Assembly: GCA_934101275.1 (NCBI GenBank)
Contig: CAKOQM010000001.1
Coordinates: 5,371-69,370, forward strand
From: an uncultured Bacilli bacterium
GTDB lineage: Bacteria; Bacillota_I; Bacilli_A; RF39; UBA660
Direction of reading: 5' to 3'
Length of the DNA stretch: 64,000 nt
Part shown: in pieces, positions 19,159 to 64,000 of the stretch
How the letters are laid out: each line of letters begins with the position of its first letter
Numbering within the stretch: position 1 is the stretch's first letter
Program-made: the position numbers and the translations under genes
The notes under the pieces: model-generated
The model's input: the letters and a program-made list of their open reading frames with translations, nothing else
The model's database searches: none
Told to the model about the DNA's origin: nothing

Positions 19159-20433
19159 ATGTTTGTTGATGTTGTAAAAATGAAATTAATGGCAGGAAAA
19201 GGTGGTGACGGTTGTACTTCTTTTCGGAGGGAAAAATATATTCCAATGGGAGGCCCTGATGGTGGCTCTGGTGGCAAAGGTGGTGACATTGTCTTTGTTT
19301 GTGATGAAAGTTTAAAAACACTCGTTGATTTAAAATATCACAAGATTGTTAAAGCAACAAAAGGAGAAAATGGTAAAGGCAAAAATAGACGTGGCAGTAA
19401 TGCTGATGACGTTATTATAAAGGTACCGGTTGGCACAACAATTTTTGATGAAGATACTGGTCTTGTTCTTGCTGATTTACTAGAAGATAAAGAAGAAGTT
19501 GTTGTGGCTCATGGTGGAAGAGGTGGAAGAGGAAATACAGCTTTTGCAACTCATGAAAAACCAGCTCCAGAATTTTCTGAATTAGGAGAACCAGGTGAAA
19601 TAAGATATATAAAATGTGAATTAAAACTTCTTGCTGATGTTGGGTTGGTAGGTATGCCAAGCGTTGGTAAAAGTACTATTTTAAATGCAGTTACCAGTGC
19701 TAATCCTAAAATAGCAAGTTATCATTTTACAACGTTAAGTCCTAATTTAGGCGTTGTCACTTTAAAAGATAAAAGTTCTTTTATTTTAGCGGATTTGCCC
19801 GGAATGATTGAAGGAGCAAGTAAAGGCGTCGGCCTTGGCCTTGACTTTTTAAGACATGCTTCTCGTTGTCGTATTTTGGCTCATGTCATTGATATGGGAA
19901 GTGAAGAAGGAAGAGATCCTATTCAAGATTATGAAATTATTCGAAATGAAATTATAAACTATAGTGATGCTCTTGCTCAAAAGAAAGAAATTATTTTAGC
20001 AAATAAAAAAGATTTACCTTCCTATGAAGAAAATCTTAAAAAATTTAAAGAAAAATATCCAGATAAAGAAATTTATGAAATAAGTGGTCTTACAAAAGAA
20101 GGCTTAGATGATTTAATGCTTCATTTAAAAATAATGATTGATACGCTTCCGAAAACAAGAGTTTATCAAAATGATGAATATGAATCAACCGTTGTTTATC
20201 GTTTTAAAAACGAAAAACCTTATACGATTACTAAAGAAGATGGTATATGGATTATAAAGGGTGAGGAAATCAATAAACTTTTTGCTATGACACGTTTCGA
20301 AGAAAAAGAAGCTGTTCTTCGTTTTGGAAGAAAACTTAAAGGAATGGGTATTGATAACGAGCTCGAACGTCTTGGTGCAAAACGTGGAGATGAAGTTCAA
20401 ATAATGGATTATTTATTTGAATTTAAGGAATAA
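19159..20433 (+). CDS. obg: GTPase Obg
   Basis: 424 aa; Gly-rich Obg fold 'GGDGCTSFRREKYIPMGGPDGGSGGKGGDI'; G1 'GMPSVGKST'; C-terminal OCT/TGS-like domain; RBS AGGAGG. Confidence 0.9.
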   Translation: MFVDVVKMKLMAGKGGDGCTSFRREKYIPMGGPDGGSGGKGGDIVFVCDESLKTLVDLKYHKIVKATKGENGKGKNRRGSNADDVIIKVPVGTTIFDEDTGLVLADLLEDKEEVVVAHGGRGGRGNTAFATHEKPAPEFSELGEPGEIRYIKCELKLLADVGLVGMPSVGKSTILNAVTSANPKIASYHFTTLSPNLGVVTLKDKSSFILADLPGMIEGASKGVGLGLDFLRHASRCRILAHVIDMGSEEGRDPIQDYEIIRNEIINYSDALAQKKEIILANKKDLPSYEENLKKFKEKYPDKEIYEISGLTKEGLDDLMLHLKIMIDTLPKTRVYQNDEYESTVVYRFKNEKPYTITKEDGIWIIKGEEINKLFAMTRFEEKEAVLRFGRKLKGMGIDNELERLGAKRGDEVQIMDYLFEFKE

Positions 20434-20758
20434 ATTTTAATACAGAACCAATATAAAATTTTAAACTCGTATTTTTAGGTAATTCTAAAATATGAGTTTT
20501 TTTAGGTTCATCACTTACTTTAACCACTTTGTTAGGAGGAACATCTCGGTAAATGTAAATGACTTGATTCGAATCATTTAAGCCAATAACATCAATGTTT
20601 TCTTTCATAAAAAAGGTATGAATCGCGTTACATTTAGGAAAAAGAATACCATAATTAATATTTGTCTTTCCCATAAGGCCTAAAAGCCGATCTTTAAATT
20701 TCACAGCTTTTTTGATTTCAATTTCTTTATTATTTAATTTAAGTTTCATGTTTATCAC
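20423..20758 (-). CDS. DUF192-family protein
   Basis: 111 aa; 'RLLGLMGKTNINYGILFPKCNAIHTFFMKENIDVIGLND' fits the DUF192 (COG1430) pattern. Confidence 0.6.
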   Translation of the reverse strand: MINMKLKLNNKEIEIKKAVKFKDRLLGLMGKTNINYGILFPKCNAIHTFFMKENIDVIGLNDSNQVIYIYRDVPPNKVVKVSDEPKKTHILELPKNTSLKFYIGSVLKFIP

Positions 20759-20859
20759 CTAATTTACTTTATGAGACATTTCTTTAAATATTCAAACTTG
20801 TTATCTCTTTTAAAATATTATATAATTTTTTTAGATAGAAAGTATACGGTGAATTTAAA

Positions 20860-21225
20860 ATGCAATTAAAAAAATATAAAGAAAAAAGATCTTCAAATAA
20901 AATCATTGGCTTATTTCTTATTTTGACAACTTTATTATTAGCAGGAATTTATTTATATACGTCCTTTGCTTATTATAGCGAAGAAAAAAAATTTGATGTT
21001 ATTAATGGTTCTGTTTCAGATCCAGGAGACATTTACTTTGCTTTTTATGTGGATGATAAAATAAGTAAGTCTATGCCAAAAGAAGAAGAAGGGTATCTTC
21101 TAGATTCTGGAAAATCAACCTGTACAAACGGTGCTACTCCTGAACTTAATTTAGAAACTTGGTCTATCTTGGTAAAGAATATGACTGTTTCTAAGACAAA
21201 ATGTACGCTTTATTTTAAAAAATAA
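20860..21225 (+). CDS. Small membrane-anchored protein, possible short member of the 13898/51679 family
   Basis: 121 aa; Lys-rich N-terminus, TM, 'TSFAYY' after the TM (compare GVSYALW, GISYAYL); promoter TTGTTA-17-TATAAT upstream. Confidence 0.5.
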   Translation: MQLKKYKEKRSSNKIIGLFLILTTLLLAGIYLYTSFAYYSEEKKFDVINGSVSDPGDIYFAFYVDDKISKSMPKEEEGYLLDSGKSTCTNGATPELNLETWSILVKNMTVSKTKCTLYFKK

Positions 21226-53714: not shown

Positions 53715-54691
53715 TTTGTGACCTCCAAACTAACAGCATGAGCAATGGCTGGAATTGTTATTTTTTGATTAACAAGAAAAGGATTATGTAAGGAACCCGT
53801 TCCTATAATCAAAATACGATGATACTTATTAGATTTTAAGATTTTTCCAAATAAATAAAGTGGTAAAGCAACAGGGCCGCTGGCACCTGCATTTGTTTCT
53901 TCCTGATTTTTTAAATATAATTCGCAGCCAGCATCTAAATGTTTTGTAAGTTTTATGTGATAGGCTTGTTTTAAATATTCTTTTAATATTTTTGATCCAA
54001 TACAACCTAAGTCTCCTGTTAAAATAAGATCATAATAATCTATAGAACGTTTCATTTCCTTTAAATGTTCATTTAAAACATCCGCGGCAGCAGGGGCCAT
54101 GATCGCTCCCATATGGCTTGTATCGTTTTGTCCCATATCAATAACTTTACCAATCGTATAACTTTCTATTTTTATAGAAGAAGGCTCCTTTGTAAGTAAA
54201 ACACTAACACTACCCGTGGCCGTAAACGTCGCAGTTAAGGGTCTTGGCGCGCCGTATTCAATAGGATAACGAAATTGCTTTTCAGCCGATAAATTATGTG
54301 ATGATGTCACACAGATTCCTAAAGCTTTTGTTTTATTTTCGAGAAATTCCGCGGCTAGAAATAGACTTTCCACAAAAGATGCGCAGGCGGAATAAACACC
54401 TAAATAAGGTATATTATAATAACGAGCCGCATAACTAGATGTTCCAATTTGATTCGATAAGTCCCCTGAAACAAGTAAAGAAATCTGACTTGGTAACAGG
54501 TGATTTTTTTCTAGTAAATTATCTACAGCAACTTTTTGCATTTTAATTTCTGCTTGTTCAAATGTACTTGCTTTAAAATAAAAATCATCTAAAGTCATAT
54601 CATAATCTTTTACACTCCCCTCTTTTTCGAAAGGTCCCGCAATTGTAAAAGTATCTTTGATATAGACATTATTTATTTTTTTACTAGCCAT
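53711..54691 (-). CDS. spoVAD: Stage V sporulation protein AD
   Basis: 326 aa; thiolase/ketoacyl-synthase-like fold, 'MASKKINNVYIKDTFTIAGPFEKEG'; overlapping starts and stops with its neighbours. Confidence 0.8.
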   Translation of the reverse strand: MASKKINNVYIKDTFTIAGPFEKEGSVKDYDMTLDDFYFKASTFEQAEIKMQKVAVDNLLEKNHLLPSQISLLVSGDLSNQIGTSSYAARYYNIPYLGVYSACASFVESLFLAAEFLENKTKALGICVTSSHNLSAEKQFRYPIEYGAPRPLTATFTATGSVSVLLTKEPSSIKIESYTIGKVIDMGQNDTSHMGAIMAPAAADVLNEHLKEMKRSIDYYDLILTGDLGCIGSKILKEYLKQAYHIKLTKHLDAGCELYLKNQEETNAGASGPVALPLYLFGKILKSNKYHRILIIGTGSLHNPFLVNQKITIPAIAHAVSLEVTK

Positions 54692-55121
54692 AAATGATCA
54701 CCCCTAAAATTCCTAAGAAAAAGGCACTTACCATACCGTATAATAATACACTTCCTGCCAAGCGAAAAAAATTAGAACCAAGACCTGTAATAAGGCCATC
54801 ACGTCTATAATCTAAGGCGGCTGAAGTAACCGAATGGGCAAATCCTGTTGTTGGTAAAAAAAGACCGGCCTGACACTTACTTACCCATGTATCAAAAAAG
54901 CCTAACGAGGTCAAAAAACTAGAAGCAAATATCATTGTAATGCAAAGCCATACAAAAGCTTCTTTTTGGGGAATACCAAAACAATTTTCTAACACCGTCA
55001 CAAAAATTTGACCCATTAATCCTATTAATCCTCCCACGAAAAAAGAAATAAAAGCACGTTTCATTTTAGGCTCTTTTGGTTTTAACTCATCCACTAATTT
55101 TTGATATTCATCTTTATTCAT
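54684..55121 (-). CDS. spoVAC: Stage V sporulation protein AC
   Basis: ATG at 55121 behind RBS AGGAGGA; membrane protein 'FISFFVGGLIGLMGQ...LFLPTTGFAHSVTSAALDYRRDG'. Confidence 0.75.
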   Translation of the reverse strand: MNKDEYQKLVDELKPKEPKMKRAFISFFVGGLIGLMGQIFVTVLENCFGIPQKEAFVWLCITMIFASSFLTSLGFFDTWVSKCQAGLFLPTTGFAHSVTSAALDYRRDGLITGLGSNFFRLAGSVLLYGMVSAFFLGILGVIIYG

Positions 55122-55217
55122 ATCTGTCCTCCTAGCCCTAGTATGGAATGTTTTTTTAAAATTATACCCATAGACAGGCAATCAAATGTATGGTAGGATT
55201 ATAGACGAGGTGTAGAA

Positions 55218-55844
55218 ATGGAAGAAAGTGTAAAATTAACAGCCAAACAGGAAAAAGTTTTGGATTGCATAAAAAAGTATCAAGCAGAGCATGGTTTTCC
55301 CCCAGCCGTCAGAGAAATTTGTGAAATCCTAGGCTTATCAAGTCCTGCCACCGTACAATCCCATATTAATAATTTAAAAAAAGCCGGTGTGATTCGTAAT
55401 TCAAGCAACAAATTTAGAACACTTGAATTACTTGTTGACAATGAATATTTAAAAGAAGAAGATGGTATTATAAAGGTACCTTTACTTGGTAAAGTAACTG
55501 CAGGAAATCCTATCGAAGCTATTGAAAAGCCAAATGAATTTTTTGAACTTCCTGCTTGTTTAGTTCCTTTAAATAAAACAGTTTTCACTTTAAAAGTAAG
55601 TGGAGATTCTATGATTAATAAAGGTATCCAAGATGGGGATATTGTAATATTAGAAAAACAAAATGTTGCAAATAATGGGGATATTGTGGTAGCCATGACA
55701 GAAGATAATGAAGTGACTTTAAAAACTTTTTATAAGGAAGAGGATCATATCCGTTTACAACCTGAAAATGATACGATGAAGCCTTTTATTTTCCATAATG
55801 TGACCATTTTAGGAAAAGCTATTGGCCTTTTTCATCAATTTTAA
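55218..55844 (+). CDS. lexA: LexA repressor
   Basis: 208 aa; N-terminal wHTH; C-terminal S24 peptidase 'VSGDSMINKGIQDGDIVIL', Ala-Gly cleavage site 'VTAGNP'. Confidence 0.9.
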   Translation: MEESVKLTAKQEKVLDCIKKYQAEHGFPPAVREICEILGLSSPATVQSHINNLKKAGVIRNSSNKFRTLELLVDNEYLKEEDGIIKVPLLGKVTAGNPIEAIEKPNEFFELPACLVPLNKTVFTLKVSGDSMINKGIQDGDIVILEKQNVANNGDIVVAMTEDNEVTLKTFYKEEDHIRLQPENDTMKPFIFHNVTILGKAIGLFHQF

Positions 55845-55897
55845 ATAACCTAAAAAGGGTTATTTTTTTTCATGAAAAAACTCGTTTTTTAACGAGT

Positions 55898-58246
55898 TTA
55901 GAGATCCCAATGCCAGTTTGTAACTTCGTCTAAGTCTTTACCATATTCACGAATATAAACAGCATGTTTTTTTAATTGTTCTTCACAATATGTTTTTAAA
56001 GCAAGCGTATCAAATTCAGAAAGATATTTTAACGCTAGCAAGATTAAATGATAACGATCAAGTTTATTTTGAACACGCATATCAAAAGGTGTGGTAATAG
56101 TTCCTTCTTCTATATAACCACGAACATGGATGTTTTGATTCGTTCTTTTGTAAGTCAATTCATGAATCACATTAGGATACCCATGAAAGGCCAAAACAAC
56201 CGGTTTATTTTTAGTAAAAATAGCGTCAAACTCTTTATCGGTTAGACCATGTGGGTGATCCTCGTGACTTTCTAGTTTCATTAAATCAACCACATTAACA
56301 ACTCTTACCTTTAAATTAGGTAACCAATGTCTTAATATGCTTGTCGCCGCCATGACTTCAAGTGTTGGGGTGTCTCCTGCACAGGCCAAAACAATATCTG
56401 GATTATTATCTAAATCGTTACTGGCAAAGCCAAAGATACCAAGCCCTTTTTCACAATGGCGAATCGCTTCTTTCATTCCTAACCACTCTGGACGAGGATG
56501 TTTACTAGCAATAATTAAGTTAATATAATTTTCACTTTGTAAGCAGTGATCCATCACAGAAATCAAGGTATTGGCATCGCATGGTAAATAAATACGTGCG
56601 ATCGATGATTTTTTGGTTAAAATATGATTAATCATACCCGGATCTTGATGCGTATAACCATTATGATCTTGTTGCCAGCAATGACTTGTAACAAGTAAAT
56701 TTAGACTCGCGATAGGTTTTCGCCAAGCAAGCTCACTAGAAACTTTAAGCCACTTAGCATGTTGACTAATCATAGAATCAACAATACGCATAAAAGATTC
56801 ATAACTATGGAAAATACCATGTCTTCCCGTCAAAAGATAACCTTCTAATAAGCCTTCGCAGACATGTTCCGAAAGCATAGAATCAATCACACGGCCTTCC
56901 GTACTTAAAAGCTCATCATCGTCTAAAATTTTACCCTCAAATTGTCTTTTGGTAACTTCAAACACCGAATAAAGACGATTGGATAAAGCTTCATCTGGGC
57001 CAAAAAGACGGAAATTGGTCGGATTTAATGCAATCACATCTTTTAAGTAACGTCCAAGGACTTTCATATCTTCTTTTTCATCATTGCCAGGATACGGAAT
57101 ACGAATGCCATATTTTAAGATATTAGGAAGTTTTAACGGCTCTTTTACAAGACCGCCATTCGCATTTTTATTTGCACTCATTCTTCTTTCTTTTATAGGC
57201 ATCACACGGCAGGTGTCTTTTAATCTTCCTTTTTCGTCAAATAATTCTTCTGGATGATAACTTTTAAGCCATCTTTCTAAAACTTCTAAGCTTTCGGGAT
57301 GATTTTCATTTACCTCGACAGGAACTTGATGAGACCGAAAGGAGTCTTCAATCTTTTTGCCATCGATTTCTTTTGGACCCGTAAATCCTTTTGGCGTTTT
57401 TAAAATAATCATGGGCCAAATAGGTCTTTTAGTAACCCCTTTTTCTCTTGCTTCTTCTTGGATTAATTTAATTCTTATGATGACTTCATCCATCACTCTG
57501 GCCATTTGTTCATGGATATTTTCTTCTTTTCCAGAATCAACAATATAAGGCTCCCAACCACAACCTTTAAAGAAAGATAAAAGCTCTTCTTCACTAATAC
57601 GAGCAAAAATTGTTGGATTCGCAATTTTATAACCATTAAGATGTAAAATTGGTAAAACAACACCATCTTTTTGAGCATTTAAAAGTTTGTTACAATGCCA
57701 ACTCGTAGCAAGAGGTCCCGTTTCGGCTTCTCCATCGCCAACAATCACGGTGGCAATTAAAGATGGATTATCTAAAACGGCTCCGAAAGCATGAACGAGA
57801 CTATATCCAAGTTCACCACCCTCATTAATACTTCCGGGAACTTCTGGAGCCACATGACTTGATGTACCCCCTGGAAAACTAAAGTGTTTTAAAAATTTAC
57901 GCAAACCCTCTTCATCTTCGGTAAATTCCTTATAACACTCCGTATACGTTCCTTCAAAATAAGATTGTACCATCGCGGATTGGCCCGCATGACCAGGACC
58001 TACCACCCACATCATATTTAAATTATATTTATCAATGACGCGGTTACAATGAACATAGCAAAGATTTTGGCCAGGGGCACTCCCCCAGTGACCCACTAAT
58101 TTTGTTTTTATATCTGAAAAAGAAAGAGGTCTTCTTAAAAGAGGATTATCTTTTAAATATAAAGCCGCGGCGGATAAATAATTGGAGGCTCTAAAATAAC
58201 CATCTATTCTTTTTAATTCTTCTTCATTAAGTGTCATTTTCTGCAT
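55898..58246 (-). CDS. xfp: Phosphoketolase (xylulose-5-phosphate/fructose-6-phosphate)
   Basis: 782 aa; N-terminal 'HWGSAPGQN', TPP-binding 'GDGEAETGPLA'. Confidence 0.9.
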   Translation of the reverse strand: MQKMTLNEEELKRIDGYFRASNYLSAAALYLKDNPLLRRPLSFSDIKTKLVGHWGSAPGQNLCYVHCNRVIDKYNLNMMWVVGPGHAGQSAMVQSYFEGTYTECYKEFTEDEEGLRKFLKHFSFPGGTSSHVAPEVPGSINEGGELGYSLVHAFGAVLDNPSLIATVIVGDGEAETGPLATSWHCNKLLNAQKDGVVLPILHLNGYKIANPTIFARISEEELLSFFKGCGWEPYIVDSGKEENIHEQMARVMDEVIIRIKLIQEEAREKGVTKRPIWPMIILKTPKGFTGPKEIDGKKIEDSFRSHQVPVEVNENHPESLEVLERWLKSYHPEELFDEKGRLKDTCRVMPIKERRMSANKNANGGLVKEPLKLPNILKYGIRIPYPGNDEKEDMKVLGRYLKDVIALNPTNFRLFGPDEALSNRLYSVFEVTKRQFEGKILDDDELLSTEGRVIDSMLSEHVCEGLLEGYLLTGRHGIFHSYESFMRIVDSMISQHAKWLKVSSELAWRKPIASLNLLVTSHCWQQDHNGYTHQDPGMINHILTKKSSIARIYLPCDANTLISVMDHCLQSENYINLIIASKHPRPEWLGMKEAIRHCEKGLGIFGFASNDLDNNPDIVLACAGDTPTLEVMAATSILRHWLPNLKVRVVNVVDLMKLESHEDHPHGLTDKEFDAIFTKNKPVVLAFHGYPNVIHELTYKRTNQNIHVRGYIEEGTITTPFDMRVQNKLDRYHLILLALKYLSEFDTLALKTYCEEQLKKHAVYIREYGKDLDEVTNWHWDL

Positions 58247-58298
58247 ACTATTTCCCTCTCTATCCTATAAACAGTATACAATAATTAAGAAAAAAACA

Positions 58299-58718
58299 CT
58301 AGTCATTTTTTGACTTCGTGCTTTTCTTTTTCTTAGGTTCTTCTTTCTCTAATAAATCTCTTATCTCTTCTAAAAGTCTTACTTCATCACTTTTTTTAGG
58401 CGTTTCTTTTTTAGGCTCTTCTTTCTTTTCTAAATGTGTAATTTTATTAATAAATTTAACAAGTAAGAAAATACAGAAAGAAACAATTAAAAAATCAATA
58501 ACACTTTGAATAAACATACCATATTGAATATTGGCATCTTTAATAGTAAGTGATAAACCAGAAAAATCAATACCACCTAAAACAATCCCTAAAAGAGGGG
58601 TTAAAATATTATTAACAAGAGAGGAGACAATACTTGAAAAAGCCCCTCCAACAATAACGCCGACGGCAAGATCTAAGACATTGCCTCTTTTAATAAACTC
58701 TTTAAATTCTTTAATCAT
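58299..58718 (-). CDS. mscL: Large-conductance mechanosensitive channel
   Basis: ATG at 58718 behind RBS AAAGGAAGT; 'GNVLDLAVGVIVGGAF' TM1; Lys/Glu-rich C-terminal tail. Confidence 0.9.
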   Translation of the reverse strand: MIKEFKEFIKRGNVLDLAVGVIVGGAFSSIVSSLVNNILTPLLGIVLGGIDFSGLSLTIKDANIQYGMFIQSVIDFLIVSFCIFLLVKFINKITHLEKKEEPKKETPKKSDEVRLLEEIRDLLEKEEPKKKKSTKSKND

Positions 58719-59095
58719 ATAATGACTTCCTTTCACATAAAAGAATAGCACAGAAATATTAAAAGAAAAAGATATTATTTCTTTGCCATTTTCATCAATG
58801 TTTAAAATGAATAATTTCTAATACCCGTTTTGGTACTTTCTCTTAAAAATTTCCTAATATCTTTAATAATTATTTTTATCATAACTTCTAAAAAATAGTA
58901 TAAAAAAACTTAGCCAATACTATCAGCTAAGATTATATCACGATGGTCGAGAAGACAGGATTATTAAGTATTAGACGATACAAGTCGTAATCTTCGGATT
59001 TACGGCTTTTTTTGATGCATTATTATCCCTTAAAAATGATTTATATCCTTTAAACTCCAAAAAAATTAAGTGAAATTTAAAGGAGTGTGATATAT

Positions 59096-59848
59096 ATGTC
59101 AGTATTTCGAGTAGAAAAAAACAAAAATTATACTGTAATGAGTAATTATCATTTACAAGATAGAGATTTATCCTTAAAAGCAAAAGGTTTGCTCTCATTT
59201 ATGTTAAGCTTACCAGATGATTGGGATTACTCTTTAAATGGACTAGTATCCATATGTAAAGAAAAACACTCATCAATCAGAACCACATTACAAGAACTAG
59301 AAACAAAAAAATATTTAGAAAGAATACAAAATCGGAACGAAAAAGGTTTATTTGAATATGATTACATAATTTATGAAAAGCCTTATCAAAATGAACCGTA
59401 TATAGATTTTCCACATACGGATGAACCGCATACGGAAAATTACACACAAATAAATACTAATAGAAAAAATATTAATAAAAAAGATAAATTAGATATAAGT
59501 ACCGAAGGAATAATGAATTACCTAATCCAAACTAAATTTTTAGATATCACTGATATTGAAATATATCGCTATAAAGAACTTATTAAAGAATTATTATCAA
59601 AATACACAAAAAATTCACTCTATAAATCACTATGCTATGTTATAAGCAAAATGAAAGATAACAAAAACATTTCAAATAAATTTGCTTACTTTCAAAAAGC
59701 ATTAATTAATGGTTTAGCATTATCAGAAAAAAGTAATGTTCCAGATTGGTTAAATAAGAAAATTGAAAAAGAAAAATTATCCAAGTCTGAAGAATTAGAA
59801 ATGCTTGATTTATTAAGTAAATATAAAGAAACCGAGGTGGCGAAATGA
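59096..59848 (+). CDS. Replication initiator / DnaD-like protein (plasmid or phage RepA N-terminal-like)
   Basis: ATG at 59096 behind RBS AAAGGAG; winged-helix-like 'LSLKAKGLLSFMLSLPDDWDYSLNGL'. Confidence 0.5.
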   Translation: MSVFRVEKNKNYTVMSNYHLQDRDLSLKAKGLLSFMLSLPDDWDYSLNGLVSICKEKHSSIRTTLQELETKKYLERIQNRNEKGLFEYDYIIYEKPYQNEPYIDFPHTDEPHTENYTQINTNRKNINKKDKLDISTEGIMNYLIQTKFLDITDIEIYRYKELIKELLSKYTKNSLYKSLCYVISKMKDNKNISNKFAYFQKALINGLALSEKSNVPDWLNKKIEKEKLSKSEELEMLDLLSKYKETEVAK

Positions 59849-60087
59849 GAGTGTTAACGAAGGAAGGCATTATGTTAAATGATGTGGATACTATTGAACA
59901 ATTTAAAGTAATAACTTATTTAAAAAAATATCCCTTTACAAATAGTTCAAGACTATTTCTATATGATCGATATACAATAAAAGTTATAGACAGTAATAAT
60001 GACGTTGGTTATTTTAAATACGAGAAAGATGGGCAAATACGTTTATTAGAAGAAGAAAATAAAGAAATGGATTCTTTTTCATTATGA
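59845..60087 (+). CDS. Hypothetical protein
   Basis: 80 aa; overlapping stop/start with its neighbours. Confidence 0.4.
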   Translation: MRVLTKEGIMLNDVDTIEQFKVITYLKKYPFTNSSRLFLYDRYTIKVIDSNNDVGYFKYEKDGQIRLLEEENKEMDSFSL

Positions 60088-61346
60088 GTTATGCCATTTT
60101 TAGAACAGAACCTATTTATACTTTAAAAGACTTAGCTCAAATAGGTTCTCATAATAGACGTGAAAAAAAAGCCTATCAATCAAATCCAGACATTGATATA
60201 TCAAAAACTCAAAATAACATAGAAATTATTCCTTGCCTTTCAAAATATACCAAAAAGTTTTATCAAATGACAAGTGACTACAAAAAAGAACACGAAGAAA
60301 AAATGTTGACTATGAGAGAAGACCGTAAAAAGTCTTTCTCTCAAATGTTAAATAGTTCTAAAAGTGTTGTGGCTGATGAAATGATTTTTACAAGTGATAA
60401 TATCTTCTTTGAACAAATGGATGAAAATGACATAAAAAAATGGGCAAACACTTGCATGGAATTTATTTATAATGACATTGGCTATTCAAAAGAACAAATT
60501 CTTCACGCAACAGTTCATATGGATGAAAAAACACCTCATTTACATTGTGTTGTCGTTCCTCTTGTACGAAAATATGACAATAGAACAAAAACAATGAGAT
60601 ACGCAATTAGCAAGAAACAGTATATTAAAGACAAGTATCATTTAAGTGAACTTCAAGACAAATACCATAAACGTATGATTGAAAACGGTTTTGATTTACG
60701 TCGAGGTATAAAACACAGTGATAATGAACACTTAACGGTAAAAGAATTCAAAAAAATAACAAGGAAACTAGATAATAATATAACCGCTCAAAATAAAAAA
60801 TTAAAAGCCGAATATGATAAATTACAAGATAGTTTAAACTCTAGTAAAGAAACATTTAACAAAAAAGAAATTAAAATATCAAAAGAAAGTTATCAGCAAA
60901 TTAAAAATTTGGCAGAAACTACAAAACAAGTATTAGAAGAAACACCAAGAAACTTAGCTCTTTCAAATAGTATTAACGGTTATATAAATTCTTATCACCA
61001 ATTAGCAATGGAAAAAGCTGAAATTCAATACGAGGTGGATAATTTAAAAAAGAAAAATAAGGATTTAAGGCTTAAAAATAAAATTTTAACCGATTTATTA
61101 TTCAACGTTTTCCAAACTTTAAAAAAATGGTTTCATAAAATATTATGCCTAGGTAATGAACAGGATAAAAAGGAAATTGGTAAAGAAATAACTGATTATC
61201 AAACCAAAGGCTATTATAATTATAACGATATTAAAGATATTGTAAAAAATACCTCTTTAGAAAATCAATTTATAAAAGAGGAAAATTATTATGAACTCGA
61301 AAGTACATATTCAAATAAAGATAAAGATGATAGTTTTTCATTATAA
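60084..61346 (+). CDS. MobV-family (Mob_Pre) mobilization relaxase
   Basis: 420 aa; relaxase motif III 'HATVHMDEKTPHLHCVVVPL'; N-terminal 'MSYAIFRTEPI'; coiled-coil C-terminus. Confidence 0.8.
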   Translation: MSYAIFRTEPIYTLKDLAQIGSHNRREKKAYQSNPDIDISKTQNNIEIIPCLSKYTKKFYQMTSDYKKEHEEKMLTMREDRKKSFSQMLNSSKSVVADEMIFTSDNIFFEQMDENDIKKWANTCMEFIYNDIGYSKEQILHATVHMDEKTPHLHCVVVPLVRKYDNRTKTMRYAISKKQYIKDKYHLSELQDKYHKRMIENGFDLRRGIKHSDNEHLTVKEFKKITRKLDNNITAQNKKLKAEYDKLQDSLNSSKETFNKKEIKISKESYQQIKNLAETTKQVLEETPRNLALSNSINGYINSYHQLAMEKAEIQYEVDNLKKKNKDLRLKNKILTDLLFNVFQTLKKWFHKILCLGNEQDKKEIGKEITDYQTKGYYNYNDIKDIVKNTSLENQFIKEENYYELESTYSNKDKDDSFSL

Positions 61347-61370
61347 AAAGGTAAAGTTAACTCACTAACT

Positions 61371-61613
61371 TTACCTTTTATCTTTTTCAATTGTAACTTT
61401 ATAGCCATATTTCTTGGCAACTTTCATAAATGTTTTGAATGAATAATTTCTAACACCACGTTCATAGCCTTGTATTGTCATACCACTAAGACCTATGCTC
61501 TTTCCAAACTCATCTTGTTTCAAATTAGTCCACTCTCTTAAAATTTTCATGATGTCTTTTTCACTATAGTCATTGGCAATAAGTTTCATACAAATTAGTC
61601 CTTTCGTTGACAA
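61371..61613 (-). CDS. XRE-family HTH protein
   Basis: 80 aa; 'REWTNLKQDEFGKSIGLSGMTIQGYERG'. Confidence 0.55.
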   Translation of the reverse strand: MSTKGLICMKLIANDYSEKDIMKILREWTNLKQDEFGKSIGLSGMTIQGYERGVRNYSFKTFMKVAKKYGYKVTIEKDKR

Positions 61614-61681
61614 GCATACAGTATGACGGTATAATTTTATCGTATTCCATACGAGTAGTATGGATAAGAAAGGGATAAAAT

Positions 61682-62032
61682 ATGTACAAAAATGACATTA
61701 GTGAACTATACATGGAAGATATACAAGGTGTCAGAGAAAAAGCTTGGGAAATGTACATATCGGAAGAGAAAAAATACTTGTTAAACGTTCGCCCGCAAGA
61801 AACAGCTTATCGGCTCATGTTATGGTTAAAGTATTATCGTGCAGAAAAGATTGATTTTAACATTATGATATCTAGTTTAATGGAAGACTTTCCTTACGAA
61901 TTATCTAAACTTGAATTAACTAGTTATATTAAGCAAGTTGTGCTTTATTTAGAAAAAAATCATAAGATTAAAGTTATCAGTCAAAAGCCTATGATACTAG
62001 AAACTGATATTCCTTTTACTCAGTTGGTATGA
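61682..62032 (+). CDS. Hypothetical protein
   Basis: 116 aa; overlaps the next gene (ATGA). Confidence 0.4.
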   Translation: MYKNDISELYMEDIQGVREKAWEMYISEEKKYLLNVRPQETAYRLMLWLKYYRAEKIDFNIMISSLMEDFPYELSKLELTSYIKQVVLYLEKNHKIKVISQKPMILETDIPFTQLV

Positions 62033-62286
62033 CTAAAGATGAATGTATTACAAATGCAATCGCAACAAGAATTCTAAAGCTCTGTGAAGAAAAACAAGTT
62101 TCTATCAATCAATTGGCTCAAAAAAGCATTTTAACACAAAGTACGATTCAAAACATTGTAACCAGAAAATCAAAAAATCCCAAATTAAGAACCATTATTT
62201 TAATTTGCTATGGTTTTAATATTTCCTTATATGATTTTTTTGATGACGATATCTTCCATGATTTAGACAAGAGAATTATTGTCTAA
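62029..62286 (+). CDS. XRE-family HTH protein
   Basis: 85 aa; 'VSINQLAQKSILTQSTIQNIVTRKSKNPKLRTI'. Confidence 0.55.
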   Translation: MTKDECITNAIATRILKLCEEKQVSINQLAQKSILTQSTIQNIVTRKSKNPKLRTIILICYGFNISLYDFFDDDIFHDLDKRIIV

Positions 62287-62504
62287 ATTCACTAAAATGA
62301 CATTTTAGTAACACACTACGATATCGGCAGAGCCAATATCGGTGTGCCAAAGGATATTCCTTTGGATACCTAATTGTTTTCCTTTAAAAATTTAAAGAAA
62401 AACAAATACCCCGTCACATAAATGTAACGGGGATTATATTACACTAAATTTACTATCGCTACTTTCATTTGCTAACGCAAACAAAACGTGCCACGTAAAT
62501 TTTT

Positions 62505-63077
62505 TTAAAGGTATTTTCTTTTATCTTGAGGAATAAACACAAGCCCATCAATTTTAGGGTATATTGATTTATCTAATTTTTCTAAATTAGGTTTACTCAA
62601 TCTAGATACCTCTTTTAATTTAGTAGCAATTTCTTGCATAGTAATAGGTTCTTTGTAGCATTCGGGATGTTCTATTCTATCAATTATATCAGTATAAATA
62701 CTCTTACATTCTAAAGTATTATTACGACGCATACTTATATTATCTAACACGTCAAAATAAAAGCGATTATACTCATCTAAAGCATTTTGATAGTCTTTAA
62801 CAGAACGTCTATCGCCAGTATTAATGCCCCAATTGATTGCAGTATCGTCATATCCAGCACGTTTCATTAGACCAGCCAAACTTAAATTTAAAGCTTCAGC
62901 AATTGCTTTTAAAATTAATACATTTGGTTTTTGACGTTTTCCAGCTTCTAATCTTGATATTTCAGCATTATTTATATTAGCAAGTTTTGCCAATTCTCGT
63001 TGAGACAATCCTAAATTCTCACGAGTTTTTTTTATATATTCGCCTAAATCATTAGTATTTTTCATAGTAATAATCAC
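62505..63077 (-). CDS. XRE-family repressor with C-terminal domain
   Basis: 190 aa; 'LGLSQRELAKLANINNAEISRLEAGKRQKP'. Confidence 0.65.
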   Translation of the reverse strand: MIITMKNTNDLGEYIKKTRENLGLSQRELAKLANINNAEISRLEAGKRQKPNVLILKAIAEALNLSLAGLMKRAGYDDTAINWGINTGDRRSVKDYQNALDEYNRFYFDVLDNISMRRNNTLECKSIYTDIIDRIEHPECYKEPITMQEIATKLKEVSRLSKPNLEKLDKSIYPKIDGLVFIPQDKRKYL

Positions 63078-63374
63078 ATCCTTTTCGGCTTAGATATCCC
63101 AAGTGTAACACATTATGTTACAAAAAGCAACAAAAATGTATATTACTATGTTGACAGTTGTAACATATAGTGATATATTATTATCGACAATTTAATTATT
63201 GTCATTGTTCTTTGAAAATTTATTCGAGTTGGAAATCGCCGATATCTGCCAGCTCGTAAAAAAGTACAAGGCACAAAGGCTAACCCTATTGGTACGGGAG
63301 TTGTAGGTAAACTAAAACCTACCTTGCGATAAACGTTAACAAAATTAGAAAACAGCCAGAAAGGAGATGAAAGA

Positions 63375-63641
63375 TTGTCCTATTACGAAACATATAACAT
63401 TTTAAACAAAGTGTGGCTTACCTCTAAAGATATTCAAAAGCTTGTAAACTGCGGTAAAGATACTGCTAGAAAAATACGTGATAAAGTTGCCGAAAAAACA
63501 TTGGCAAAAGGTTACGCATTACCACTATGTAAAAATAAAGTGGTAAGCACTAAAGAAGTGATTGAATATCTTGGCTTAGATATTAAATACATAATTGAAA
63601 TGGCCACTTTAGAGCAAAATAATAAAATAGGATTAAAATAA
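63375..63641 (+). CDS. Excisionase-like small DNA-binding protein (putative)
   Basis: 88 aa immediately upstream of the integrase; TTG start behind RBS AGGAG. Confidence 0.4.
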   Translation: MSYYETYNILNKVWLTSKDIQKLVNCGKDTARKIRDKVAEKTLAKGYALPLCKNKVVSTKEVIEYLGLDIKYIIEMATLEQNNKIGLK

Positions 63642-63642
63642 T

Positions 63643-64000
63643 ATGGCAATTTATAAAAATAGCAAAAATAATACCTTTTATTTCCGTGTTTATCTAACGC
63701 AATCAGATGGAACAAAAGTACAGAAGCAGAAAAACGGTTTTAAAACCAAGCGTGAAGCAAGTAATGCAGAGGTACAGATGATTTTAGAAAACGAAAGATA
63801 TTTACAGAATAAAAAGGAACAAGAAGAACACACAATGATAATTTCTTTTACCGAATTGGTAGAAAATTATAAAAAGTACATGAAAGTAAAGCAAAAACGT
63901 AACTCATATCGCTGTATAACAAATAGAATTGAAACACATTTATTACCTTATTTCAAATCATTTAATGATATTTCTAAAATATCAGCTCAAGATTATATTG
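63643..64000 (+). CDS. int: Tyrosine integrase, N-terminal part (truncated by the window edge)
   Basis: 'MAIYKNSKNNTFYFRVYLTQSDGTKVQKQKNGFKTKREA' arm-binding N-terminus, then SAM-like core-binding 'FTELVENYKKYMKVKQKRNSYRCITNRIETHLLPYF'. Confidence 0.7.
   Translation, partial: MAIYKNSKNNTFYFRVYLTQSDGTKVQKQKNGFKTKREASNAEVQMILENERYLQNKKEQEEHTMIISFTELVENYKKYMKVKQKRNSYRCITNRIETHLLPYFKSFNDISKISAQDYI

Follow-up and report, generated by a model that had tools for sequence, protein, structure and literature searches.

A probable integrative mobilizable element in a tRNA-Pro gene of an uncultured gut Bacilli bacterium, with a predicted oriT downstream of and antisense to mobV

Integrative mobilizable elements (IMEs) that combine a tyrosine integrase with a MobV relaxase are an established class: they carry no coupling protein, sit at the 3′ end of a gene for a tRNA or a ribosomal protein and frequently encode a separate replication-type protein (PMC5704250, PMC5357655). 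The closest characterized example for the locus studied here is IMESag-rpsI of S. agalactiae, which is mobilized in trans by a conjugative plasmid (PMC5090054, PMC5704250). The nick made by MobM, the relaxase of plasmid pMV158, has been mapped experimentally to TAGTGTG/TTA (PMC5090054, PMC5863519). Other IMEs, among them NBU1 (tRNA-Leu), Tn6031 (tRNA-Pro) and the streptococcal Tyr_8 IMEs, use the 3′ end of a tRNA gene, which is rebuilt by a short direct repeat, and their integrase adjoins the intact tRNA (PMC5704250, PMC5357655). The streptococcal tRNA-Lys and tRNA-Leu IMEs for which a relaxase is stated carry MobT, not MobV, and no MobV IME in the list of PMC5704250 targets a tRNA gene. Here we describe a nine-gene block at the right edge of a 64-kb stretch of DNA from an uncultured Bacilli bacterium (contig CAKOQM010000001.1; 64,000 nucleotides (nt), hereafter the window). 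This block, at window positions 58943 to about 64856, is very probably a complete, cargo-less IME of 5,896 bp that inserted itself, through the tyrosine integrase it encodes, at the 3′ end of tRNA-Pro(TGG).

Following the definition of IMEs in PMC5704250, we found an element-encoded enzyme for integration and excision, a relaxase together with a predicted origin of transfer (oriT), and integration bounded by attachment (att) sites that are unoccupied in related genomes. Compared by its published description, IMESag-rpsI shares with this element its small size, a tyrosine integrase, a single MobV relaxase without coupling-protein or pore genes, a target at the 3′ end of a conserved gene of the translation apparatus and a separate replication-type protein. 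The two differ in target (rpsI rather than tRNA-Pro), in length (9.5 kb against 5.9 kb) and in the replication-type protein (Rep_trans, of the rolling-circle type, against an HTH_36 protein), and whereas transfer of IMESag-rpsI has been demonstrated, the present element is known from sequence. Both have an oriT built of inverted repeats, with nick sequences one base apart (TAGTGCG/TTA for MobSag, TAGTGTG/TTA here; PMC5090054), but the oriT of IMESag-rpsI lies upstream of mob, whereas here it lies about 1 kb downstream of the mob stop codon and on the opposite strand. The element is of interest because it can be delimited so completely, because many elements of uncultured gut Bacilli have the same oriT signature and because of the unusual downstream, antisense placement of this oriT; its oriT and its putative arm sites, both described below, are new here. 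It also resembles NBU1, Tn6031 and the Tyr_8 IMEs in its use of a tRNA gene; the tRNA-targeting IMEs of Bacteroidota belong to another phylum, and the likeness to them is one of description.

Boundaries and occupancy of the insertion site

The original prediction had placed an IME at the window edge, with a right attachment site outside the window. Because the final 856 bases of the element indeed lie beyond it, we read the right end from a public metagenome contig (L001, 77.9 kb), which was retrieved by an exact-protein look-up with the MobV relaxase and shows 0 mismatches to the window over positions 54000-64000 (window coordinate = L001 coordinate + 50083). Rightwards, L001 contains the complete integrase gene followed by minus-strand tRNA-Pro(TGG), tRNA-Arg(ACG) and rpmF. 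The prediction had further allowed for cargo beyond the window; there is none, as the integrase is the last gene of the element. A search for direct repeats of the left-end region, which it had proposed together with the rightward extension, returned an exact 18-bp repeat, ATGGTCGAGAAGACAGGA, at both ends. The left copy (attL core, 58943-58960) is the displaced 3′ end of the original tRNA-Pro, and the predicted element start at 58950 was within 7 bases of this boundary. The right copy (L001 14756-14773, equivalent to window 64839-64856; 18/18 identical) lies 69 nt past the integrase stop codon, within tRNA-Pro(TGG), and comprises the last 17 nt of the tRNA, including CCA, and one further base. 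The start-to-start distance of the two cores is 5,896 bp.

Same-species records, collected by looking up the neighbouring MscL protein, contain both states of this site. Six of them (L004, L005, L006, L007, L008 and L010) have an empty site with one copy of the core each, in which mscL is followed by a 224-bp spacer, the single 18-mer and directly the tRNA; four (L001, L002, L003 and L009) are occupied. Where flanks were compared, in four of the empty records (L004, L005, L007 and L008), they are 97.2-98.6% identical to those of the occupied strain. We regard these boundaries as more than chance because an exact 18-bp repeat lies at the ends and the element is cleanly absent from six same-species records. 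All nine genes, integrase included, thus lie in one insertion between a single att pair, and since the empty sites lack all 5.9 kb, both outcomes that would have overturned the prediction, a separate att pair for the integrase and a free, intact plasmid, are excluded. For the excised circle, the predicted attP junction is ...TTTGTAAACAAA-ATGGTCGAGAAGACAGGA-TTATTAAGTATTAG..., and the restored attB is expected to read ...GATTATATCACG-core-CTCGAACC....

Insertion has separated the tRNA from its transcription terminator. The intrinsic terminator of the host tRNA-Arg/tRNA-Pro unit (58909-58931, minus strand), found by a terminator scan, lies outside the element; the same hairpin directly follows the tRNA in the empty sites, and in the occupied strain it has been pushed 5.9 kb away from tRNA-Pro. 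A hairpin with a T-run lies on the tRNA strand after the tRNA (L001 14706-14745), as it does in each integrase relative examined, and we interpret it as a replacement terminator brought by the element for the tRNA unit. Just inside the left end, another terminator-like hairpin with a T7 run, followed by GATGCA (58982-59015, plus strand; DNA fold), may act as an insulator or, in the circular form, as a terminator for int. In relatives, hairpins with a T-run occupy a comparable position at the 5′ edge of their mob operons; the hairpin at 58982-59015 was not detected by covariance model R1, described below, and the left end of the element folded as DNA was not significant (z = -0.9). ARAGORN found no tRNA gene in the 64-kb window, the region's only tRNAs beginning 840 bases beyond its end, and no Rfam family reached its gathering threshold in the element or the window. 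Two weak Rfam matches at 62319-62503 fall inside the hairpin-rich oriT region and were judged to be chance.

The spacer between mscL and attL contains a fragment (58776-58864) that resembles XRE72, one of the element's regulator genes (85-86% identity over 50-55 nt, then 77% over 35 nt). We considered and rejected an older element in tandem with the present one: the fragment predates the insertion, because the empty sites carry it too. In one empty-site record, about 2.3 kb at the same place (L006 1-2485) hold an intact XRE72 homologue (74% amino-acid identity), a CTP_transf_like gene and two DCD (dCTP-deaminase-like) genes. The fragment and these genes suggest the remains of an older, possibly defence-related island at an insertion hotspot.

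The mobilization operon and its predicted oriT

The left part of the element is a transcription unit of three genes, encoding an HTH_36 protein, orf80 and MobV, which ends at a terminator-like 14-bp hairpin (61346-61379, plus strand; terminator scan) between mobV and the convergent XRE72. The genes named by the original prediction, here and in the rest of the element, are all where it had placed them, with Pfam and NCBIfam family support. The relaxase (60084-61346, plus strand; 420 amino acids (aa)) consists of a relaxase domain of about residues 1-225 followed by a long helical C-terminal part. It matches Mob_Pre (PF01076; E = 8.6e-30; 104.5 bits against a cut-off of 25.5) and NCBIfam MobV (NF041497; 119.7 bits against a cut-off of 100), and its residues 40-225 align with the relaxase domain of pMV158 MobM (PDB 4LVI; E = 2.7e-17), covering motif III. 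As had been foreseen, this motif has the form HxDExxPHxH (HMDEKTPHLH, residues 145-154; window 60516-60545), and motif I reads HNRR (residues 23-26). His23, which lies N-terminal to the 4LVI alignment, would correspond to MobM His22 by position and by the literature. The protein thus surpasses the curated score thresholds of the MOBV family and carries its HxxR, with the histidine, and its HxDE...PHxH motif; the cognate oriT of this family, inverted repeats with a GTGxG/T nick, is present as sequence.

We conclude that the oriT, which is conserved, lies on the minus strand at 62309-62346; it reads CACAC-CGATATTGGC-tct-GCCGATATCG-TA-GTGTG/TTA, with nicking predicted between 62312 and 62311; the motif can be extended to GGCACAC-CGATATTGGC-tct-GCCGATATCG-TA-GTGTG/TTAC. 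Its 10-mer TAGTGTGTTA (62318 to 62309) is identical to the mapped nick sequence of pMV158 MobM, 5′-TAGTGTG/TTA-3′, and occurs nowhere else on either strand of the 64-kb window (0.14 expected). Of 80 loci with a MobV of 44-61% identity, 46 have the same motif antisense to mob and downstream of it; the loci without it mostly have short downstream flanks. In an alignment of 28 distinct versions, which were chosen by the 11-mer TAGTGTGTTAC so that the invariance of TAGTGTGTTAC is by construction, the 10-bp stem is 94.3% paired and compensatory changes occur in 6 of its 10 pairs; neither the pairing nor the covariation was reached by any of 500 shuffles. In the closest relatives the oriT begins about 60 nt after the mob stop codon, whereas here XRE72, orf116 and XRE85 intervene.

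The likeness to pMV158 extends to the layout of the oriT. Besides the relaxase family, the position of the HxxR histidine, the HxDE..PHxH motif and the 10-nt nick sequence (PDB 4LVI; PMC5863519), the two have an inner hairpin that ends shortly 5′ of the nick (7 nt here, 8 nt for IR1 of pMV158; PMC5863519), and, like IR3 of pMV158, an outer pairing of CACAC with GTGTG, interrupted by a 2-nt bulge, places the nick at the 3′ edge of a long hairpin (PMC5863519). The stem sequences are unrelated, however, and pMV158 differs in being a free rolling-circle plasmid without an integrase, with an oriT that overlaps the mobM promoters upstream of the gene. Here the oriT is part of a structured non-coding region of 218 nt between XRE85 and XRE186 (62287-62504, minus strand) with six consecutive hairpins, which folds as single-stranded DNA with -49.5 kcal/mol, against -17.4 +/- 3.2 for shuffled sequences (z = -10.1). 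It may double as a single-strand origin, and the terminator scan marks a possible bidirectional terminator within it (62409-62432).

An earlier candidate for the oriT was discarded. This hairpin with a T-run (alignment A2, covariance model R1), seen in distant relatives some 45 nt before mob, has no counterpart in the element, and where close relatives have it, it is the terminator that follows a tRNA or tmRNA gene. The relaxase of a C. baratii plasmid, the closest plasmid-borne one, has no similar oriT and shares no non-coding sequence with the element. The A2 hairpin is an observation in its own right: distant MobV relatives (47-51% identity; loci L031-L089) have a conserved, covarying 10-bp hairpin, a T-run and GTTGTGT about 45 nt before mobV. 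It is located between the upstream gene and the ribosome-binding site of mob, mostly in loci without a nearby tRNA, and is absent from the element; an attenuator, a terminator and a relaxase binding site are candidates for its role.

The two genes upstream of mobV are less readily assigned. The first (59096-59848, plus strand; 250 aa) encodes a winged-helix protein (Pfam HTH_36, E = 1.2e-07) whose N-terminal 130 aa match a PHROG replication-initiation family (E = 2.1e-22); a DnaD-like loader family also matches (E = 1.2e-12). These N-terminal residues define a very large family (18,389 representative clusters), whose members bear annotations such as replication initiator, DnaD-like loader or DUF6017 protein. 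The AlphaFold model (pLDDT 79) contains a confident winged helix (residues 18-92) and a helical C-terminal domain; for this model Foldseek returned DnaD-N (E = 0.16) and RepA_N (E = 0.24-0.37), with generic winged-helix regulators scoring better; a sequence search of the PDB gave no match. A DnaB_2 domain is present in 3 of 33 relatives of this protein, not in the protein itself. Of the earlier label 'RepA-like', the winged helix and the family annotated as replication initiator or DnaD-like therefore stand, but the protein could be a replication-initiator or DnaD-like protein or a relaxosome accessory protein, and the latter fits its place in the operon equally well. The second gene, orf80 (59845-60087, plus strand), overlaps both neighbours by 4 nt, which suggests translational coupling, and gave no family match in Pfam, NCBIfam, PHROG and PADLOC scans.

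Among the nine open reading frames (ORFs) there was no match to a coupling-protein or type IV secretion family (VirB4, VirD4, TcpA and other pore families in Pfam, NCBIfam and PHROGs). A helper is therefore needed, as had been anticipated from the lack of visible conjugation genes. Scans with Pfam, NCBIfam, PHROG and PADLOC recognized no resistance, virulence or defence gene among the nine ORFs; a defence cargo was considered from the PADLOC results and dismissed, as these were generic HTH matches.

The integration module, its regulators and a proposed life cycle

The tyrosine integrase gene starts at 63643 (plus strand), runs past the window end at 64000, as predicted, with the first 119 of its 375 aa inside, and ends at window-equivalent 64770 in L001. 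Its N-terminus matches Arm-DNA-bind_4 (E = 1.2e-10), the arm-binding domain that had been foreseen, and Phage_int_SAM_3; the full-length protein in L001 adds a Phage_integrase domain and a match to the PHROG integrase family (E = 3.2e-69). The R..HxxR..H/W..Y residues of the tyrosine recombinase catalytic set are present: R209 (GMRLGE), H315-R318 (HDFRHSH), H341 (LGHSD) and Y351 (IYSHM). Overlapping the int stop codon and preceding the right core are three exact copies of TTAAGGGC with 11-bp spacing (L001 14673, 14684 and 14695). No other match to TTAAGGGC occurs in 21 kb, and the three lie within 30 bp beside int, 54-83 bp from the core. A three-repeat pattern recurs in the same place beside integrases of about 50-65% identity, in L095 and L098 as ATAAGGGC/TTAAGGGC/TTAAGGGC; L092 has two copies and L100 a diverged set. 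We interpret these repeats, distinct from the core, as putative arm-type sites for the Arm-DNA-bind_4 domain. A single inverted arm-repeat core, TTAAGGG, near the left end (59027-59033, minus strand) is a further candidate arm-type site by its position.

An ORF of 88 aa (63375-63641, plus strand) ends 1 nt before the int start codon and is conserved with the integrase in sister elements. It had been called Xis-like: its position before int is as described, but the match to HTH_17 is below threshold (E = 0.0027; 18.4 bits against a cut-off of 27), the PDB has no sequence match, and its AlphaFold model (pLDDT 74) found no significant fold match there (best Foldseek E-value 1.0). Upstream is a promoter, TTGACA-17-TATATT with a TG extension (63151-63179, plus strand; 11/12 consensus). 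Operator-like repeats containing TGTAACA, TGTAACAcATtaTGtTA (63104-63120 and 63159-63175, plus strand; repeat families D1 and I1), lie in the same region, the second overlapping this promoter. RNA folding of the 200-nt xis leader was not significant (z = -1.6). Divergent from xis-int is XRE186 (62505-63065, minus strand), with an N-terminal XRE helix-turn-helix (HTH_3, E = 6.5e-14) and a C-terminal domain of unknown type, which is likely to be the repressor of excision.

A second group of regulators occupies the middle of the element. XRE72 (61371-61589, minus strand; HTH_3, E = 2e-08) is a small XRE regulator divergent from an operon of orf116 (61682-62032, plus strand) and XRE85, a second small XRE regulator (62029-62286, plus strand; HTH_26, E = 4e-08). 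The promoter of this operon, TTGACA-17-TATAAT (61607-61635, plus strand), matches the consensus at 12 of 12 positions and lies between XRE72 and orf116. Scans with Pfam, NCBIfam, PHROG and PADLOC gave no family match for orf116. A homologue of XRE72 (73% identical) adjoins an orf116 homologue in the decayed relative L027.

These features can be arranged into a proposed life cycle. XRE186 would repress the divergent xis-int promoter through the TGTAACA repeats. Upon derepression, the N-terminal domain of Int would bind the three 11-bp-phased TTAAGGGC arm sites and, together with the 88-aa Xis-position protein, recombine the two 18-bp cores, which would free a circle and return to the tRNA gene its own terminator. 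MobV would then nick the minus strand at TAGTGTG/TTA, with His23 as the nucleophile by analogy with MobM His22, and the relaxase-DNA complex would leave through the coupling protein and mating pore of a helper conjugative element. In the recipient, the strand would be recircularized and copied, with priming perhaps in the hairpin-rich region next to the oriT, and the HTH_36 replication-like protein may keep the circle transiently. Finally, Int would insert the circle into tRNA-Pro, with the element supplying the last 17 nt of the tRNA and the replacement terminator.

Competing readings, relatives and modularity

Several observations weigh against the reading of this locus as a self-integrating IME. 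All four records that carry the element are integrated forms, and JGI metagenomes contained no exact match to the attP junction. The replication role of the HTH_36 protein is tentative and draws on annotation, the part of the 88-aa protein as a recombination directionality factor is putative and follows from its position, the repressor and operator logic is inferred from repeats, and the left-arm 7-mer TTAAGGG is not significant (34 of 100 shuffles). An inactive and domesticated IME remnant that no longer excises or transfers would account for the missing excised form, and decayed relatives do exist, such as L027 with its truncated integrase beside tRNA-Pro. We nevertheless consider such a remnant quite improbable: all nine ORFs are intact, as are the att cores (18/18), the integrase catalytic motifs, the relaxase motifs and the oriT, and presence or absence among strains of about 98% identity indicates recent mobility.

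The element might instead be primarily a small plasmid that uses the HTH_36 protein as its Rep and also carries an integrase, with an excised form that persists and replicates autonomously instead of being a passing intermediate. This overlaps with the IME reading and is compatible with it, and we think it unlikely. The matches of the HTH_36 protein to phage and plasmid replication-initiation families and DnaD-like loaders would suit it, as would the DnaB_2 domain of some relatives, the 4-6 kb plasmids on which the closest annotated relaxases lie and the room for a single-strand origin in the 218-nt hairpin-rich region. However, the element is chromosomally integrated in all four carriers, gave zero megablast matches in 72,556 plasmids, and neither a circular contig nor the attP junction was found; moreover, the HTH_36 protein has only a generic winged-helix fold match and no sequence match in the PDB, and the 4-nt overlaps in the mob operon suit a relaxosome accessory role equally well. 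We give hardly any credence to a satellite of the phage-inducible chromosomal island (PICI) type or a prophage remnant spread by a helper phage. The layout of int, divergent XREs, xis and a rep-like gene does resemble the left part of PICIs and temperate phages, and the integrase and rep-like protein match PHROG families, but no PHROG match to packaging, capsid, terminase or primase genes was found among the nine ORFs, nor did Pfam and PHROG reveal packaging-hijack or primase-helicase genes; the element is just 5.9 kb long, has no megablast match in 50,697 phage records and encodes a genuine MobV relaxase along with its conserved cognate oriT. Integrative and conjugative elements are defined by a type IV secretion system that includes a VirB4-like ATPase and a coupling protein; the 5.9 kb contain no such system. 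An IME therefore remains the reading that we prefer.

The host of the element is an uncultured gut bacterium close to 'Candidatus Ventrenecus sp.', with which the LexA encoded in the window shares a 90%-identity cluster. Relatives of this IME are almost entirely found in metagenome-assembled genomes (MAGs) of uncultured Bacilli, 'Tenericutes' or 'Mollicutes' from human and animal guts. Those closest by relaxase (L012, L013, L019, L020 and L042; MobV 53-57% identical) share the oriT GCACAC-hairpin-TAGTGTG/TTAC, antisense and downstream of mob, and like the element they adjoin the ends of small RNA genes, namely tmRNA, tRNA-Gly(TCC) or tRNA-Arg(CCT). They differ in their integration genes: in L013 a large serine recombinase directly upstream of mob replaces xis-int, and the other four have no tyrosine integrase of this family within 7 kb, L019 and L042 sharing the coding sequence that lies upstream of mob in L013. 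These MobV elements have apparently not been described in the literature so far. Conversely, tRNA-Pro(TGG) adjoins the integrase relatives L092, L098, L100 and L102 and the truncated integrase of L027, with integrases of 51-65% identity also found there; L095 adjoins tRNA-Gly(TCC). The trio of minus-strand XRE, small ORF and int is kept in L092, L095 and L100, and the rest of those islands differs. In the flanks available for L092, L098 and L027, direct-repeat searches for the left ends of these elements found no repeat, and an integrase-based scan of JGI metagenomes returned a single relative (28% identity). Of the 80 loci with MobV relatives, only 2 encode an integrase of this family less than 7 kb away; given this, the serine recombinase in L013 and the differing RNA neighbours, the mob/oriT and integration modules are exchangeable. 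Module exchange has been reported for streptococcal IMEs (PMC5357655).

A wider reading is possible, although we lean somewhat against it. The element would then stand for the tyrosine-integrase members of a large and so far undescribed clade of MobV IMEs confined to uncultured gut Bacilli, among them MAGs that bear the label Tenericutes, Mollicutes or Mycoplasmatota, with a shared oriT and swapped integration modules. In such a clade the oriT GCACAC-hairpin-TAGTGTG/TTAC would always lie downstream of and antisense to mob; a tyrosine integrase at tRNA-Pro would be freely exchanged with at least one large serine recombinase at tmRNA, tRNA-Gly or tRNA-Arg sites; and the module of XRE, small ORF and Int with three phased arm sites would also drive islands with defence-like genes. 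If true, the clade would point to an unrecognized helper conjugation system in these lineages, because no conjugative system is seen near any of these elements. The direct practical importance of the element itself is low, because it has no recognizable resistance, virulence or defence genes. It does provide a fully delimited and apparently intact IME, with att core, arm sites, oriT and promoters placed, in an uncultured gut Bacilli lineage whose mobile elements are otherwise known almost only from MAG fragments, and GCACAC-hairpin-TAGTGTG/TTAC is a simple signature with which related mobilizable elements can be found and oriented in metagenomes and their helpers sought.

Three further loci were noted along the way. 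The decayed relative L027 (5398-11069; a mouse-gut Bacilli MAG) occupies the same tRNA-Pro(TGG)/tRNA-Arg(ACG) pair, with MobV 54%, XRE72 73% and orf116 30% identical; only the C-terminal 90 aa or so of its integrase remain. The islands L095 (1-7147) and L096 (1-7108), beside tRNA-Gly(TCC), have a 50%-identical integrase, the same XRE/int module and three TTAAGGGC-type repeats; their defence-like genes comprise an SLFN-g3-type helicase (with a faint nSTAND3 match), NUDIX and large methyltransferase genes and, in L096, Abi_C, and no relaxase. Lastly, about 5.5-7.3 kb past the window end, a group II intron (L001 19375-21263) with an RVT_1+GIIM ORF (19671-21002) and an Rfam group-II-D1D4-1 match (21088-21160) splits an EF-Tu-domain gene that reads through without a break (317 aa) in L005, an empty-site strain, and is thus a second strain-variable mobile element near the locus.

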